A program made the translations under genes and the position numbers. This document shows positions 1 to 7,708 of a stretch of 7,708 nt of DNA, piece after piece. The notes under the pieces are model-generated. The model searched no databases. It was given only the letters and a program-made list of their open reading frames with translations, and was not told where the DNA came from. Origin of the DNA: a virus (taxonomy: Duplodnaviria; Heunggongvirae; Uroviricota; Caudoviricetes); IMG/VR virus record IMGVR_UViG_2663763413_000006. The stretch is one strand, 5' to 3'. Within the stretch, counting starts at the first letter, position 1, and every line of letters starts with the position of its first letter.

Positions 1-296
1 GGGCCGGTAAAACCGGACTGATACAGCCACTTATCCGCAGCGTGCTGGACTCCGGGGGCTTTGCCGTGGTGTTCGACATGGGGGATGGCTACAAGTCCCT
101 GTGTGAGAACATGGGGGGCGTATATCTGGACGGTGAAACCCTGCGTTTTAACCCGTTTGCGAACATCACCGATATCGACCAGTCAGCGGAGCGTGTCCGT
201 GACCAGTTGTCAGTGATGGCCAGCCCCAACGGTAACCTGGATGAAGTGCATGAAGGTCTGCTGCTGCAGGCGGTCAGGGCCTCCTGGCTGGCCTGA
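1..296 (+). pseudogene. traC: Internal fragment of F-type conjugative transfer ATPase TraC (VirB4-family T4SS ATPase); 5' end outside window, stop TGA at 294-296
   Basis: Frame starting at nt 3 is open from the window edge and reads AGKTGLIQPLIRSVLDSGGFAVVFDMGDGYKSLCENMGGVYLDGETLRFNPFANITDIDQSAERVRDQLSVMASPNGNLDEVHEGLLLQAVRASWLA. The leading AGKT is the tail of a Walker A P-loop. The string matches my recollection of F-plasmid TraC, which continues past ...RASWLA; here a TGA follows immediately. Recognition is from memory, not a search. Confidence 0.7.
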
Positions 297-647
297 TCCT
301 TAACTGATCGGCATTACAGCCAGATGCTGGGCTTTATTGCCGAAAACTATGATCAGGCGCTGACCATCAACGATGTGGCTGAGCACGTCAAACTTAACGC
401 CAACTATGCAATGGGGATATTCCAGCGGGTCATGCAATTGACGATGAAACAGTACATTACCGCGATGCGCATCAACCACGTTCGCGCGTTACTGAGCGAT
501 ACCGATAAAAGTATTCTCGATATTGCCCTGACGGCAGGCTTTCGTTCGAGTAGCCGTTTTTACAGCACGTTCGGCAAATATGTCGGCATGTCGCCGCAAC
601 AATACCGCAAACTTAGCCAACAGCGCCGCCAGACGTTTCCCGGCTAA
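297..647 (+). pseudogene. melR: 3' portion of an AraC/XylS-family regulator (MelR-like C-terminal HTH DNA-binding domain); 5' part of the gene absent
   Basis: Same frame as the traC fragment. Translation SLTDRHYSQMLGFIAENYDQALTINDVAEHVKLNANYAMGIFQRVMQLTMKQYITAMRINHVRALLSDTDKSILDIALTAGFRSSSRFYSTFGKYVGMSPQQYRKLSQQRRQTFPG is a typical AraC-family tandem-HTH C-terminus. Position directly upstream of adiA matches the E. coli melR-adiA-adiY-adiC arrangement. Only about 115 codons are present, so the gene is 5'-truncated. Confidence 0.6.
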
Positions 648-842
648 AGACGATATCAGTATCAGCCAAAAAAATAGTTTAGCCGTCGATAATAAGCAGT
701 GAAAATAATTTAAAATAATCACATAACGTATTGTTTATAAAAATAAATATTTCAAAAATGTTTGTTTTTCACGCGCTTTACAGCCCGAAAAGGCCGGAAG
801 ATACTTGCCCGCAACGAAGATTCCTTCATAACCGGGTAAGCA
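648..842 (+). promoter_or_regulatory. AT-rich upstream control region of adiA (promoter not resolved to -35/-10)
   Basis: Strongly AT-rich intergenic tract (aaaaatagtttagcc...tttataaaaataaatatttcaaaaatg) between the regulator fragment and the adiA start at 843. No convincing sigma70 hexamer pair could be assigned by eye. Confidence 0.3.
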
Positions 843-3183
843 ATGATGAAAGTATTAATTGTTGAAAGCGAGTTTCTCCATCAAGACACCTGGGTCGGTA
901 ACGCCGTTGAGCGTCTGGCAGATGCTTTAAGCCAGCAAAATGTTACCGTGATTAAATCCACCTCCTTTGATGATGGTTTTGCCATTCTCTCTTCAAACGA
1001 AGCCATTGACTGCCTGATGTTCAGCTATCAAATGGAACATCCGGACGAACATCAAAACGTCAGACAATTGATCGGTAAGCTTCATGAGCGCCAACAAAAC
1101 GTGCCGGTCTTCCTGTTGGGCGATCGGGAAAAAGCCCTCGCCGCAATGGACCGGGATCTGCTGGAGCTTGTCGATGAATTCGCCTGGATTCTGGAAGATA
1201 CCGCCGACTTTATCGCCGGACGCGCCGTTGCCGCGATGACCCGCTACCGCCAGCAGCTATTGCCGCCACTGTTCAGCGCGCTGATGAAATATAGCGACAT
1301 CCATGAATATTCCTGGGCAGCGCCAGGCCACCAGGGCGGCGTTGGTTTTACCAAAACACCCGCCGGACGTTTCTACCATGACTATTATGGTGAAAATCTG
1401 TTCCGCACCGACATGGGTATCGAACGCACTTCCCTCGGTTCTTTGCTTGACCATACTGGCGCATTTGGCGAAAGCGAAAGATATGCCGCACGCGTATTTG
1501 GTGCCGATCGCTCCTGGTCGGTAGTCGTCGGTACTTCCGGCTCTAACCGCACCATCATGCAGGCTTGCATGACCGATAACGAGATAGTAGGTCGGTGACC
1601 GTAACTGCCAGAAATCCATCGAAAAAGCCATAAAGCCAACAAACAAGAAACCAGGCTAACAGGCGCGAAACCGGTCTACATGGTGCCAAGCCGCAACCGC
1701 TACGGCATTATCGGGCCAATCTATCCGCAGGAAATGCAACCTGAAACCTTGCAGAAGAAAATCAATGAAAGCCCGCTGACCAAAGACAAAGCCGGGCAAA
1801 AACCGTCTTACTGCGTGGTGACCAACTGCACCTATGACGGCGTGTGTTATAACGCTAAAGAAGCACAGGATCTGCTGGAAAAAACCTCCGATCGTCTGCA
1901 CTCTGACGAAGCACTGGTACGGCTATGAACGTTCCAACCCGATCCATGCCGATCACGAGCCATGCGACAGCTCTATGCCGATCAACCCGATCTATGCCGA
2001 TCACTATGCCATGCGCGGCGAACCTGGCGATCACAACGGTCCTACCGTTTTCGCCACCCACTCCACCCACAAACTGCTGAATGCGCTGTCACAGGCCTCT
2101 TATATTCATGTACGTGAAGGTCGTGGGGCGATTAACTTCTCCCGCTTCAACCAGGCCTACATGATGCATGCCACCACCTCCCCGCTGTATGCCATCTGCG
2201 CATCCAACGACGTGGCGGTGTCGATGATGGACGGCAACAGCGGCCTGTCACTGACCCAGGAAGTGATCGACGAAGCGGTTGATTTCCGTCAGGCGATGGC
2301 GCGGCTATATAAAGAGTTCACCGCTGACGGTAGCTGGTTCTTCAAACCGTGGAACAAAGAAGTCGTCACCGACCCACAAACCGGCAAAACCTATGACTTT
2401 GCTGACGCACCAACCAAACTGCTGACCACCGTTCAGGACTGCTGGGTCATGCATCCGGGCGAAAGCTGGCACGGCTTCAAAGATATTCCGGATAACTGGA
2501 GTATGCTCGACCCGATTAAAGTCAGCATCCTTGCTCCGGGAATGGGTGAAGATGGTGAACTGGAAGAAACCGGTGTTCCGGCGGCGCTGGTCACAGCCTG
2601 GCTTGGTCGCCACGGCATTGTGCCTACCCGTACCACTGACTTCCAGATTATGTTCCTGTTCTCTATGGGCGTGACCCGTGGGAAATGGGGGACTCTGGTT
2701 AACACCCTTTGCTCCTTCAAACGCCACTATGATGCCAACACACCGCTGGCGCAGGTGATGCCGGAACTTGTTGAACAATATCCTGACACTTACGCGAACA
2801 TGGGGATTCACGATCTGGGTGACACCATGTTTGCCTGGCTGAAAGAAAACAACCCTGGCGCACGGTTGAATGAAGCCTATTCCGGCCTACCGGTGGCGGA
2901 AATCACCCCGCGTGAAGCGTACAACGCGATTGTCGACAACAATGTCGAACTGGTATCCATTGAAAATCTGCCAGGACGTATCGCGGCAAACTCAGTTATC
3001 CCGTATCCGCCAGGAATCCCGATGCTGCTGTCTGGTGAAAACTTCGGCGATAAAAACAGTCCGCAAGTAAGTTATTTACGCTCGCTGCAATCCTGGGACC
3101 ATCATTTCCCTGGATTTGAACACGAAACAGAAGGGACAGAAATTATTGACGGTATTTACCACGTTATGTGTGTGAAAGCGTAA
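843..3183 (+). pseudogene. adiA: Biodegradative (acid-inducible) arginine decarboxylase AdiA, reading frame broken into three ORFs (843-1598, 1680-1928, 1834-3183)
   Basis: N-terminus MMKVLIVESEFLHQDTWVGNAVERLADALSQQNVTVIKSTSF... and C-terminus ...GTEIIDGIYHVMCVKA match E. coli AdiA as I recall it. In-frame stops TGA 1596-1598 and TAA 1602-1604 lie in a scrambled segment 1581-1658, after which frame 0 resumes (TGAKPVYMVPSRNRYG). A +1 shift near 1911-1916 moves the native reading to frame 1 (WYGY...). A 48-bp in-frame insertion at about 1936-1983 is a diverged partial copy of the following sequence. Confidence 0.85.
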
Positions 3184-3199
3184 CCACTATTCCGCTGAA

Positions 3200-3226
3200 G
3201 GCGTAATTGTTAAATAACATTACGCC
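3200..3226. other. 27-nt near-perfect palindrome (hairpin-capable) immediately downstream of the adiA stop
   Basis: ggcgtaat tgttaaataac attacgcc: 8-bp perfect outer stem (3200-3207 with 3219-3226), a further 4 bp after one mismatch. No T-run follows, so it is not a canonical intrinsic terminator. Confidence 0.4.
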
Positions 3227-3300
3227 GCCTGGCTTGAGGCCTTTTAAGTATGGCAACGTTTTCATAAAAATTGCTGCAAACAAAAAATGTCATGCTTTTT

Positions 3301-3328
3301 GCGCGGTCCCACCCCGCGCTTTTTTTTG
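3301..3328 (+). terminator. Rho-independent terminator between adiA and adiY
   Basis: GC-rich stem gcgcgg (3301-3306) pairing with ccgcgc (3314-3319), 7-nt loop tcccacc, followed directly by a run of 8 T (3320-3327). Confidence 0.6.
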
Positions 3329-3518
3329 CCTGTTATTTATCCTTTTTTTAGCCTGTAAAAAAATATGTACATGAGAAATTACTATAAAAATTTGTAATAT
3401 TAGTAAAACTCGTTATTTTTATGCATGTTTATATTCATCATACAATTATATAACCATTTCCCGGTATCGCTTCGCTTTAGCGAGAACTGGTCTTTTATTC
3501 GCACTCAGGAGTACATGT

Positions 3519-4443
3519 ATGAGGATTTGCAGCGACCAACCTTGTATTGTTTTATTGACTGAAAAAGATGTCTGGATAAGGGTGAATGGGAAAGAACCTA
3601 TTAGCCTTAAAGCTAACCACATGGCGTTATTAAATTGTGAAAATAATATTATCGACGTCTCCTCTCTTAATAACACTTTGGTTGCTCATATTAGTCACGA
3701 CATCATCAAAGATTACCTCCGGTTTCTGAATAAAGATCTCTCGCAAATACCAGTATGGCAACGTAGCGCTACGCCCATCCTCACCCTTCCATGCCTGACG
3801 CCAGACGTCTTTCGCGTTGCCGCGCAGCATAGCATGATGCCCGCTGAAACTGAGTCAGAAAAGGAACGAACACGTGCATTATTATTCACTGTGCTATCCC
3901 GTTTTCTCGACAGTAAAAAATTCCTTTCACTAATGATGTATATGTTTCACTAATGATGTATATGTTACGTAATTGTGTAAGTGACAGCGTTTATCAAATT
4001 GTGTAAGTGACAGCGTTTATCAAATTATTGAAAGCGAAATCCACAAAGACTGGAATCTTAGTATGCCAGCAAGAGACTGGAATCTTAGTATGGTAGCCAG
4101 TTTGGAATCTTAGTATGGTAGCCAGTTGATGATGTCTCAGCCCAAGTCTGTTAAAGAAAAAGCTGAAAAGCGAAAACACCAGTTATAGCCAAATAATCAC
4201 CACCTGCCGCATGCGTTATGCCGTAAATGAATTAATGATGGACGGTAAAAATATTTAATAATGGACGGTAAAAATATCTCTCAGGTACGCTAAAAATATC
4301 TCACAGGTATCACAGTCCTGCGGCTACAACAGTACGTCGTACTTTATTTCTGTCCTTAAAGACTTATACGGTATGACGCCGCTGCATAAGGTATGACGCC
4401 GCTGCATTATGTTAGTCAGCACAGAGAACGCACTGTCGCCTGA
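3519..4443 (+). pseudogene. adiY: AraC-family activator AdiY, disrupted by multiple short tandem duplications and in-frame stops
   Basis: ORF 3519-3953 reads MRICSDQPCIVLLTEKDVWIRVNGKEPISLKANHMALLNCENNIIDVSSLNN..., matching recalled E. coli AdiY, then terminates early at TAA 3951-3953 inside a duplicated segment. Downstream sequence still encodes AdiY-like peptides in shifting frames (e.g. [56 protein letters not shown]) up to the native-looking stop TGA 4441-4443. Good RBS aggag 8 nt upstream of the ATG. Confidence 0.8.
3925..4409 (+). repeat. Cluster of short direct tandem duplications inside adiY
   Basis: Read directly: tttcactaatgatgtatatg x2 (3925-3944, 3945-3964); attgtgtaagtgacagcgtttatcaa x2 (3972-3997, 3998-4023); gactggaatcttagtatg(gtagccagtt) in three overlapping copies (4048-4065, 4075-4102, 4103-4127); atggacggtaaaaatat x2 (4238-4254, 4261-4277) with a third partial copy near 4291-4310; ggtatgacgccgctgcat x2 (4370-4387, 4390-4407). 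Confidence 0.85.
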
Positions 4444-4579
4444 TTTTTAACCTTAACGAAGAGCTATATTAATAACGGCATCAGCGATAACCCGGCCGAT
4501 AATAATTCAACTATCGAATGCAGGCGTATGATATGACGTAATTTATTGTCACGAAGCTCGCCTTCGCAGGAGTTTAATT

Positions 4580-5163
<584 letters not shown>

Positions 5164-5164
5164 T

Positions 5165-5242
<78 letters not shown>

Positions 5243-5251
5243 TTGCAGATA

Positions 5252-5641
5252 TTACTCTTTTTTCTCCGTATCTGCATCGGGTTCATCAGCAAATAGCTTG
5301 CCCTGCATCCGATCCAGTTCTTCTTTTCTTACCCGCTTAACCACGCTGTAGACCCACTGAAGCGAAACACCAAATTTGCGGGCCAGTTCGTGGTGGTTGC
5401 GTCCGTTAAACTCCCTGAAGATTTCCCGGTCGCGCTGACTGACCTTCCATACCATGCCCATCGGGAAATAAACGTTTTGCCCGCCCCAGACCTGCATCAT
5501 TCGGTTCGCGACGGCCTGACCAATCTGGTCGGCAACTTCGGGCTCAATATCAATAATCTCGCGAACGGTCTCAGAGGTATGCTGTGCCAGTTCCACCAGG
5601 AGTTCCGGCCCCTTACTTCGAAACTGATTCAGGTCGCTCAT
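5252..5641 (-). CDS. mor: Mor-like middle-operon transcriptional activator (Mu gp17 family)
   Basis: 129 aa. C-terminal region ...GGQNVYFPMGMVWKVSQRDREIFREFNGRNHHELARKFGVSLQWVYSVVKRVRK resembles the conserved Mor/C-family HTH region of phage Mu Mor as I recall it (...FNGRN..EL...YG......VY...RR.R). Start overlaps the upstream gemA-like gene by 29 nt. Confidence 0.7.
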   Translation of the reverse strand: MSDLNQFRSKGPELLVELAQHTSETVREIIDIEPEVADQIGQAVANRMMQVWGGQNVYFPMGMVWKVSQRDREIFREFNGRNHHELARKFGVSLQWVYSVVKRVRKEELDRMQGKLFADEPDADTEKKE

Positions 5642-6062
5642 GTTTGACTCCCGCAGCTCTGCGCTGCCACTTCTTCAGTTTCTCAATAACACTGCTTGCC
5701 TGTTCAGTACTGAGCCAGCGCAGGGCGCTGATGCCCGTTTCCCGCTTGATCCACCTCGCTAATGCATTTTCTGAACGGTCACGAACAATGCCGGCAGCAG
5801 CCATTTCAAGCCATAGCGCACGAATTTTCCTGGACTGCGGATGGTTATCAAGCGGTAAACCGGAGCTGGCTTTTCTGGCTGGTTTAACGCGAAAGCCTTT
5901 CTTTTTCATGGATTCCAGCACGCAGTTTAGTTGTGTGGTATCCATTCCTTTGGTTGAGGCTTTACCGGTCAGCCCCTGTAACATCTGGCGGTAGGTGTCT
6001 TCATCCATACCCAGTTCATTACGGGCAATATGGATAAGCTGTATCAGGCGTTTTTTCTGCAT
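5613..6062 (-). CDS. gemA: GemA-like protein (Mu gp16 / DUF1018 family)
   Basis: 149 aa, MQKKRLIQLIHIARNELGMDEDTYRQMLQGLTGKASTKGMDTTQLNCVLESMKKKGFR...KIRALWLEMAAAG... matches the GemA family pattern recalled from Mu-like prophage annotations. Lies immediately upstream of mor as in phage Mu. RBS ggag upstream of ATG at 6062. Confidence 0.65.
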   Translation of the reverse strand: MQKKRLIQLIHIARNELGMDEDTYRQMLQGLTGKASTKGMDTTQLNCVLESMKKKGFRVKPARKASSGLPLDNHPQSRKIRALWLEMAAAGIVRDRSENALARWIKRETGISALRWLSTEQASSVIEKLKKWQRRAAGVKHERPESVSK

Positions 6063-6063
6063 A

Positions 6064-6270
6064 TCATCTCCTTTTTTTCAGTCTGTCGGCAACAATGTCG
6101 GTTGCAGCTGGCAGGGTGACTGGCCAGAACAACATGACGGCGGTCATGTACAGGATGTAATGCGCGGTGTCGTAGTGCCTGCCATAGCCCAGGGAACGAT
6201 GAAGTCTTGCGCTGCATGATCCTGCGTACATATACCAGAAAAGAAAACAGACAATGGTTTCAGTAGTCAT
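6064..6270 (-). CDS. Small hydrophobic (putative membrane) protein, 68 aa, unknown function
   Basis: Internal start of the 6064-6426 ORF: ATG at 6270-6268 preceded by ggagg about 10 nt upstream. MTTETIVCFLFWYMYAGSCSARLHRSLGYGRHYDTAHYILYMTAVMLFWPVTLPAATDIVADRLKKRR has two hydrophobic segments. Start overlaps the stop of the upstream gene; the stop is 1 nt from the gemA start. Confidence 0.4.
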   Translation of the reverse strand: MTTETIVCFLFWYMYAGSCSARLHRSLGYGRHYDTAHYILYMTAVMLFWPVTLPAATDIVADRLKKRR

Positions 6271-6490
6271 TCTGAATACCTCCCCATTCGATATGAATAT
6301 TACGGGCAGCAATGACAGGGTCGTTATTCCACCATGCACCTGACATGTATTTTTCAACCTGTTCGCGTCCGGCAATAACACCAATTGTGATCCCCGGCCT
6401 GACGTTCTTAAAAAAGGCGCGGGCAAAAAGGTATCTGGCAGATATTCGGCAGGCTTTTAATTTCCGGCTTTTACCTGATAGCGTAATCAT
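6260..6490 (-). CDS. Hypothetical phage protein, 76 aa
   Basis: ORF with ATG overlapping the TGA of the upstream DUF2786-like gene (ATGA at 6487-6490, minus strand), consistent with translational coupling in a phage operon. No family recognised. Confidence 0.4.
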   Translation of the reverse strand: MITLSGKSRKLKACRISARYLFARAFFKNVRPGITIGVIAGREQVEKYMSGAWWNNDPVIAARNIHIEWGGIQNDY

Positions 6491-7170
6491 CTGGCCTCCA
6501 GTTTCTGTTGTTCCTGCCCACTGACCGGGCGGTGCAGTCTGACGTTCTGCCCTTCACGAAACCCCGCATAGCGCGAGGCGTCGCCATTGCGGCTTCTTCC
6601 CGGTTTACGCGCCCTGGTGGTTTGCGTCTGCGGGTATTTATGTTCCAGCCACTGCTGCATCAGTTCACGCTCATCATCGGTCAGGGCAAAGGACTGTATT
6701 TCACTGATAACGGCCAGCACCCAGCCTTCGGCAAACTGGTCTCCACGGCTGGTGCGGGTGGCGGTTTTTATTCTTTTGTTCTGTGCACTGATATACTGCT
6801 GACGCGCCTTTTTCAGCTGACGGGCCAGCACTTCCCAGGTGTATGCAGCCAGTGCCGCACGTTCCCGGTTGCCGTAGAACCCCACAGACGGATGCGTGCC
6901 GGGGTGAATGATGGAGTTAACACCAAATACCTCGCGGATGATGTTCATCAGGCCCAGCATGTAGCGCGGTGGACGGAGACTGCCTGTCGGCCAGTAGTGA
7001 CTGATGGTTTCATCAATATCACTCATAGCAATGTCGGAATGTGTGATGCCGTGAACATCCATCAGTTTACGGGCTCGGCGCAGTGCCAGAGCGGCCTCGT
7101 GCGGGTTGCCGGATGCGGCCAGCGCCAGCAACTTTTTCAGTTTCTCAATGTGTTTATTCTGGTCTGTCAT
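6487..7170 (-). CDS. DUF2786-like phage protein (227 aa from ATG 7170; the six-frame ORF extends to 7206)
   Basis: N-terminus MTDQNKHIEKLKKLLALAASGNPHEAALALRRARKLMDVHG resembles the DUF2786 signature (EKI.KLLALA.S.N..EA..A...A..LM) common in prophage early regions. The ATG at 7170 overlaps the TGA of the upstream gene (ATGA) and has ggag about 11 nt upstream, so I prefer it over the 7206 start. Confidence 0.55.
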   Translation of the reverse strand: MTDQNKHIEKLKKLLALAASGNPHEAALALRRARKLMDVHGITHSDIAMSDIDETISHYWPTGSLRPPRYMLGLMNIIREVFGVNSIIHPGTHPSVGFYGNRERAALAAYTWEVLARQLKKARQQYISAQNKRIKTATRTSRGDQFAEGWVLAVISEIQSFALTDDERELMQQWLEHKYPQTQTTRARKPGRSRNGDASRYAGFREGQNVRLHRPVSGQEQQKLEAR

Positions 7171-7382
7171 TGTTCTGTATCTCCGGTATTTTTCTGCCGT
7201 TTCCATGCCCGGACAGCGTCGGACAGCTCTTTCAGGCTGTATGCTGCTTTAAGCTTTTCCCATAACCACTGTGTTGTTATGTGCATCAGCAGGGCAGCCA
7301 GGGCTGCCCCCGCACTGAGGCATGTCGCCAGGCCAGTAAGAATCAGTGTCCATGCGGTGATTTCCCTGAGTATGTCAGCCAT
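7167..7382 (-). CDS. Small putative membrane protein, 71 aa, unknown function
   Basis: MADILREITAWTLILTGLATCLSAGAALAALLMHITTQWLWEKLKAAYSLKELSDAVRAWKRQKNTGDTEQ has one clear hydrophobic helix. RBS gggagg 8 nt upstream of the ATG; stop overlaps the start of the downstream gene. Confidence 0.4.
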   Translation of the reverse strand: MADILREITAWTLILTGLATCLSAGAALAALLMHITTQWLWEKLKAAYSLKELSDAVRAWKRQKNTGDTEQ

Positions 7383-7396
7383 TGAATGCCTCCCGG

Positions 7397-7693
7397 TTAC
7401 TCGTTCGTGTAAATCACGCCCAGTCGTGCAGCCAGACGTTCCAGTTTTTTCTGTTTGTGGAAGTCAATCAGCCGGTCCATCCCCTGAAGGCGCAGTTGCT
7501 CTGTCATGATTTCCACGTCTGCCAGCTCTGCCGCGAGGTCACTTTCGCTGCCCTGTCCGTTCAGGTTGCGGGCGGCACTGGCCGCCAGTTCAGCGGCCTC
7601 TTCTGCCAGTTTCAGGGCCTGTGCGTCCGGCCCGAAACGCTGCAGGGCCAGACGGTAGAGGGCGGTGCGGGTGAGTTCGGTGTTTCGTGTCAT
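7397..7693 (-). CDS. Small MazG-like all-alpha nucleotide pyrophosphohydrolase-type protein, 98 aa (motif-based call)
   Basis: Contains E31-x3-E35 (LAEEAAELAAS), then 20 residues later E56-x2-D59 (AAELADVEIM), matching the MazG/HisE-type metal-binding signature E-x3-E ... E-x2-D. RBS gaggg upstream of ATG at 7693. Inferred from motif only. Confidence 0.5.
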   Translation of the reverse strand: MTRNTELTRTALYRLALQRFGPDAQALKLAEEAAELAASAARNLNGQGSESDLAAELADVEIMTEQLRLQGMDRLIDFHKQKKLERLAARLGVIYTNE

Positions 7694-7708
7694 GCCGCGC
7701 CCTCAGTG

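Follow-up and report, generated by a model that had tools for sequence, protein, structure and literature searches.

The tandem micro-duplications that interrupt adiA and adiY in this database record are most likely a technical artefact of assembly, and not a feature of the chromosome of the bacterium. This reading is favoured by the divergence between copies that lie beside pristine flanks, by length changes that are insertions only, and by the narrow size of the back-steps, together with the concentration of errors at the restarts, a one-strand substitution spectrum, and the chimeric nature of the contig that carries them.

Source and composition of the contig

The window, that is, the whole stretch of DNA analysed (7708 nt), corresponds to the complete 7708-bp contig AOQJ01000101.1 of the NCBI draft assembly GCA_000397385.1, as established by an exact match through its truncated AdiY. 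The contig is chimeric, with a traC piece, the adi region, and the end of a prophage joined to each other. On the plus strand, an internal fragment of traC from an F-type plasmid (1–293, 100% identical to many plasmids) is followed by the 3′ part of melR (317–647), by adiA (846–3183), which is broken into three open reading frames by two stutter zones, by adiY (3519–4443), written in the record with 925 nt versus 762, and by the 5′ part of adiC (4580–5084), garbled at positions 5064–5084; the remainder, 5085–7708 on the minus strand, is the end of a Mu-like transposable prophage encoding Mor, GemA, and DUF2786 proteins, among others. The chromosomal stretch melR′-adiA-adiY-adiC′ occupies positions 317–5063. 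Within this same contig, long stretches are free of errors, namely 1985–3925 and the prophage part 5085–7708, which matches at 100%.

Between mid-traC and mid-melR lie 23 nt of filler, TGATCCTTAACTGATCGGCATTA (294–316), the origin of which is unexplained; this portion of the window (1–316) shows neither an IS element nor homology at the join, and a traC fragment adjacent to melR occurs in no record searched. An adapter or linker origin of the filler was considered and set aside, as only GATCGG is recognisable in it. A source elsewhere in the window gave no significant match, the best being a 10-mer and an 11-mer that are borderline after multiple testing; the 10-mer pairs the filler with the reverse complement of the adiA stutter motif. 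At the other side, the garbled end of adiC (21 nt) contains 17 unrelated nt in place of 11 nt of adiC. Neither the traC-melR nor the adiC-prophage junction was found in 5426 complete E. coli genomes, 72,556 plasmids, or 50,697 phage records, and an F-prime plasmid or phage-packaged host DNA as the carrier of the junctions was discarded, with no match among the plasmid and phage records.

The prophage end is 100% identical to prophages located at other chromosomal sites of E. coli. It belongs to a 36.7-kb Mu-like transposable prophage (positions 1043–37750 of locus L089) and is 100% identical to a prophage that strain TUM14759 carries between ylbE and fdrA; across other genomes, the element occupies many different chromosomal sites. 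A 313-nt match to phage PhiKM is likewise 100% identical. Transcription of the early operon of the prophage (transposase, B-like ATPase, Gam, GemA, and Mor) runs outward to this end, an arrangement inverted relative to Mu. The adiC-prophage junction (window 5064–5090) reads GCCG/TATTTG, where the slash marks the join and the six nucleotides TATTTG are common to adiC and the phage end. The insertion in adiC may be a real but rare transposition that was caught by a few poor reads.

Tandem duplications in adiY

The gene adiY encodes an AraC-family activator of adiA, an acid-resistance regulator, and is sited between adiA and adiC. Both the sequence match and the synteny with the E. coli adiA-adiY-adiC region identify the disrupted gene as adiY, as the sequence-only reading had proposed. 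The stutter-like tandem micro-duplications that this reading placed in the gene were recovered at the same coordinates by two repeat finders and stood up to a shuffle control. In a scan of the 7708-nt window for neighbouring repeats of ≥90% identity and a period of 15–40, four loci were retrieved, all of them inside 3923–4412, and no qualifying repeat appeared in 100 composition-preserving block shuffles, indicating that the adiY repeats are real in the record and far beyond chance.

When mapped to E. coli strain 104, every event follows the same pattern, in which the wild-type adiY is followed up to a point, and the sequence then restarts upstream and runs onward. The first back-step (3925–3964, plus strand, as are all those below) consists of two 100% identical copies of 20 bp with the restart at 3945, detected by Tandem Repeats Finder and by a second repeat search, and the second (3971–4022) of two 100% identical copies of 26 bp, with the 4 nt AATT common at the boundary and the restart at 3997. 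Back-steps 3 and 4 (4042–4127, delimited as 4051–4127 by the repeat finders) give three copies of about 25 nt, the first of them degraded, with restarts at 4066 and 4103; the former opens with CCAgCAAgA, and the latter is clean. Back-step 5 (4225–4270, restart 4248) comprises two imperfect copies of 23 bp (83% identical without gaps), and back-step 6 (4265–4308, restart 4287) two copies of 22 bp, 91% identical, both with one or two mismatches close to the left end of each restarted copy. The last (4366–4405, restart 4386) contains two copies of 20 bp that are 95% identical, with a single C>A change at window position 4389, near the start of the second copy. The back-steps therefore measure, in order, 20, 26, 27, 25, 23, 22, and 20 nt and account for 163 extra bases, with no deletions relative to strain 104.

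The five duplications counted at the outset hold as five places in the gene, but they comprise seven restart events. Nor do the linkers reported as untemplated survive alignment: a two-segment alignment resolves ccagcaaga into the template CCACAAAGA with two 1-nt insertions, while ttaata is TTAATG with a G>A change and cgc is CGG with a G>C change. The first duplication shifts the reading frame of adiY after codon ~142, and the first open reading frame stops at 3953; once the extra 163 nt are taken out, adiY is again full-length and in frame, with 253 codons and a few private substitutions. Three of these private substitutions (T>A, T>G, and T>C) fall at 4126–4140 on the plus strand, and two of them make stops at codons 171–172 of the collapsed gene. 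An 11-mer at 4126–4136, TTGATGATGTC, made by two private substitutions, is the reverse complement of 3699–3709, 420 nt upstream; about 0.02 inverted matches of this type are expected by chance, which is borderline after multiple testing, and the match may be due to chance or may point to an inverted template.

Damage in adiA and substitution spectrum

The restriction of the cluster to positions 3925–4409 of adiY, as first described, applies to the repeats found there, but three further back-steps of 19–29 nt are located in adiA, and both internal junctions of the contig show damage of the same kind. Zone 1 (1583–1660, plus strand) combines dense private substitutions, a 1-nt insertion, and a 21-nt back-step with the restart at 1627, and the first ~30 nt of the restarted segment are ~30% wrong, without any T. 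In zone 2 (1903–1985, plus strand), a 37-nt copy is degraded, two back-steps, of 29 and 19 nt (restarts at 1972 and 1982), come after it, and a 1-nt insertion lies at 1913; here, the error-rich copy comes before the restart, and not after it. An extra T at 3343, within the poly-T run that separates adiA from adiY, is natural variation shared by several metagenome E. coli contigs and does not belong to the damage.

Taken together, adiA and adiY harbour ten back-steps of 19–29 nt (mean 23.2, sd 3.4). The changes in length amount to 14 insertions (the ten back-steps plus four 1-nt insertions, all four within the stutter zones) versus no deletions (sign test, p = 6e-5). In three of the ten duplications, the copies match perfectly, the flanks are clean, and the boundary homology is 2, 4, and 0 nt; the other seven copies carry substitutions or 1-nt insertions despite pristine flanks, so that copies diverge by up to 20–30% while the flanking DNA is ~100% identical to that of other strains.

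Compared with strain 104, the chromosomal part shows 36 substitutions, 15 known in the metagenome panel and 21 private. The known polymorphisms are all transitions (15/15) and keep clear of the restarts (0/15 within 50 nt), whereas 14 of the 21 private substitutions are transversions (Fisher's test for transition or transversion against known or private, p = 6e-5) and 19 of the 21 fall within 50 nt of a restart, in 15% of the sequence (p = 3e-14). Almost all of the private changes in coding sequence are non-synonymous. On the plus strand, the changed base is T in 12 cases, C in five, G in four, and A in none (probability of zero A, 4e-4), the new base is A in 11/21, and the garbled inserts contain no T. 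Viewed on the minus strand, T is never miscalled, 11/21 changes are to T, and A>C accounts for 5/21, that is, 16/21 combined, with four fitting neither class. In most cases, the errors are concentrated on the left side of the restarted segment, the position expected for the 3′ tail of a read from the minus strand.

Uniqueness among other sequences

The duplications are found in none of the complete E. coli genomes, the plasmid or phage records, or the 82-locus metagenome panel. The adiY region aligns to none of the 5426 complete E. coli genomes in fewer than five pieces, with a matched span of 1138 nt versus 1301 nt of query. As anticipated from the sequence, the reference adiY lacks the repeats, the gene of strain 104 being 163 bases shorter and none of the 82 panel loci having an insertion of at least 5 nt in adiY. 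The search for identical duplication boundaries in other genomes likewise returned nothing: exact patterns over three duplication junctions, one against metagenome contigs and two against contigs of GTDB species-representative genomes, gave no matches, while the wild-type junction pattern was present in 82 metagenome contigs. Each truncated protein of the contig occurs in exactly one contig among ~15 billion proteins, with NCBI as the only source. The truncated AdiA of another draft genome was considered as a parallel case and rejected, as it is a plain frameshift with no stutter. Four low-coverage (1–2×) SPAdes metagenome contigs of the locus show many 1-nt indels and no micro-duplications, indicating that low coverage alone is insufficient with a modern assembler.

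Origin of the duplications

The sequence-only reading had left template switching during replication or repair, polymerase slippage in a constructed sequence, and an artefact side by side; the chimeric contig, the uniqueness of the events, and the error-like spectrum favour the artefact over the other two. The affected stretches would be backed by very few, error-rich reads, and neighbouring reads or mini-contigs would truly overlap by only ~19–29 nt. Such short overlaps, placed end to end instead of being merged, would be written twice, and miscalls in the read tails would explain why copies differ, how the apparent linkers arose, and why private substitutions lie close by. The traC-melR and the garbled adiC-prophage joins could then be chimeric or minority-read joins in the same poor contig. 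Low read depth, the sequencing platform, and a faulty assembler step are elements of this scheme that we infer. Some observations fit it less well: in zone 2 of adiA the errors precede the restart, and long flawless stretches exist in the same contig. The three perfect duplications imply that read errors alone do not explain the unmerged overlaps, and the absence of stutters in the 1–2× SPAdes contigs implies that the artefact would be pipeline-specific. Concatenation at a fixed k-mer overlap (k-1) was rejected as the cause, since the back-steps range from 19 to 29 nt.

Other assemblies are known to contain false duplications linked with errors in reads, very low depth, and flawed filling of gaps (Ko et al. 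2022, PMC9516828). The cases described there resemble the present one in the tandem double writing, the involvement of read errors or erroneous k-mers, the spurious disruption of genes, and the absence from better assemblies, but they are kilobase-scale and vertebrate, whereas here units of 19–29 nt recur ten times in one bacterial contig. By the features that identify a false duplication, those of adiA and adiY are absent from independent assemblies, carry errors at the copies, and are accompanied by other signs of mis-assembly in the contig. Regarding the substitutions, late-cycle errors of early Illumina chemistry produce a 'T accumulation' (Kircher et al. 2009, PMC2745764), in which, as on the minus strand here, T is unaffected and errors are mostly to T, plus A>C, and fall where reads would have their 3′ ends. 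The fit is only partial, with 11/21 miscalls towards T and 16/21 once A>C is included, and base-calling errors alone make no duplications.

If the events had instead taken place in the cell, a mutational catastrophe could be envisaged in which low-fidelity repair or break-induced synthesis re-primes 20–29 nt upstream, by template switching, an MMBIR-like process, or unprocessed 5′ flaps; we regard this as unlikely. Such a process would leave substitutions on exposed single-stranded DNA and, with the same low probability, could connect with the plasmid-chromosome join and the Mu-like insertion. The duplication-only character, the narrow size class, and the strand-coordinated substitutions at restarts superficially resemble break-associated mutation clusters, and homology to adiC is lost exactly at the prophage end, as expected of true transposition. 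Nevertheless, the junctions have little or no microhomology (0–4 nt), no inverted or distant templated inserts occur in the window, the ten events sit in two patches of a 4.7-kb segment whose neighbouring DNA is identical to that of other strains, an error density of ~30% over 30 nt with no T is far above any known in vivo cluster, and the events are carried by a short, chimeric draft contig and by no other sequence. The more specific proposal that the stutters are the real, kataegis-like footprint of an error-prone polymerase that, during break-induced or gap-filling synthesis, re-primed ~23 nt upstream without homology is distinctly unlikely. MMBIR/FoSTeS and polymerase-theta end joining leave microhomology junctions, often with inverted or distant templates, at one break; Slack et al., in 2006, reportedly belong to this template-switching repair literature, and E. 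coli is not known to have a polymerase theta. These systems share with the present case the copy-and-restart logic and the complexity of events at a single locus, but MMBIR/FoSTeS use microhomology, whereas the ten separate, local, direct back-steps described here have almost none; a template switch of the MMBIR type finds no support, since all the restarts are direct and local and the filler has no significant match elsewhere in the window. The E. coli polA 5′-exonuclease is the equivalent of the flap function of yeast rad27. Defects in flap processing, as in the rad27 flap endonuclease, are known to give duplication mutations (Rad27; PMC4608483), which, like those in adiA and adiY, are duplications only, tens of nucleotides long, and in direct tandem, and which in this respect speak for an event in the cell. 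They differ in being flanked by short direct repeats (3–12 bp), in being distributed genome-wide on a mutator background, and in lacking dense, strand-biased substitutions, while here microhomology is 0–4 nt, the cluster is tight, and such substitutions are present; in this contig, to which the comparison is limited, flanking repeats are mostly absent at the duplications.

Replication slippage generating a real allele finds no support either, given the boundary homology of 2, 4, and 0 nt and the seven other copies that differ beside pristine flanks. A diversity-generating retroelement was rejected, as no second copy of the region was found in the window and no reverse transcriptase in the called genes or the homologous prophage; moreover, 9/21 changes are not at a minus-strand A. 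Very unlikely, too, is an origin in vitro, through polymerase template switching in library PCR or whole-genome amplification and faithful sequencing of the stuttered molecules. This would account for unrelated DNA joined through a short filler, as in traC/melR, and for copy-and-restart events in direct orientation, but chimeras of this kind are individually rare and outvoted at normal depth, ten events on 4.7 kb need many independent molecules tiling one locus, and strand-biased miscalls indicate base calling and not polymerase error. The pattern is unlike ordinary pseudogene decay, a point on which the initial reading proved correct. That a dispensable adiY and adiA gathered slippage duplications and point mutations over time is extremely unlikely, even though the adi locus is broken at both ends in the record and other Escherichia and Shigella assemblies also contain truncated forms of AdiY and AdiA: the copies differ by as much as 20–30% while their flanks are ~100% identical to other strains, there are zero deletions despite the usual deletion bias, the private changes are mostly strand-biased transversions whereas the natural polymorphisms of the locus are all transitions, and no intermediate alleles appear in 5426 genomes and 82 metagenome loci.

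Implications

Old draft assemblies could be screened for errors of this class, with no need for reads, by the combination of duplication-only back-steps of ~20–30 nt, private strand-biased transversions clustered at the restarts, and pristine flanks. If the duplications were real, they would represent an undescribed, homology-independent re-priming in E. coli, of interest to the field of replication and repair. If, on the other hand, they are the assembly artefact favoured here, the adiA and adiY 'pseudogenes', the traC-melR join, and the truncated proteins of this record are unfit as evidence of gene loss, of plasmid integration, or of new protein variants.
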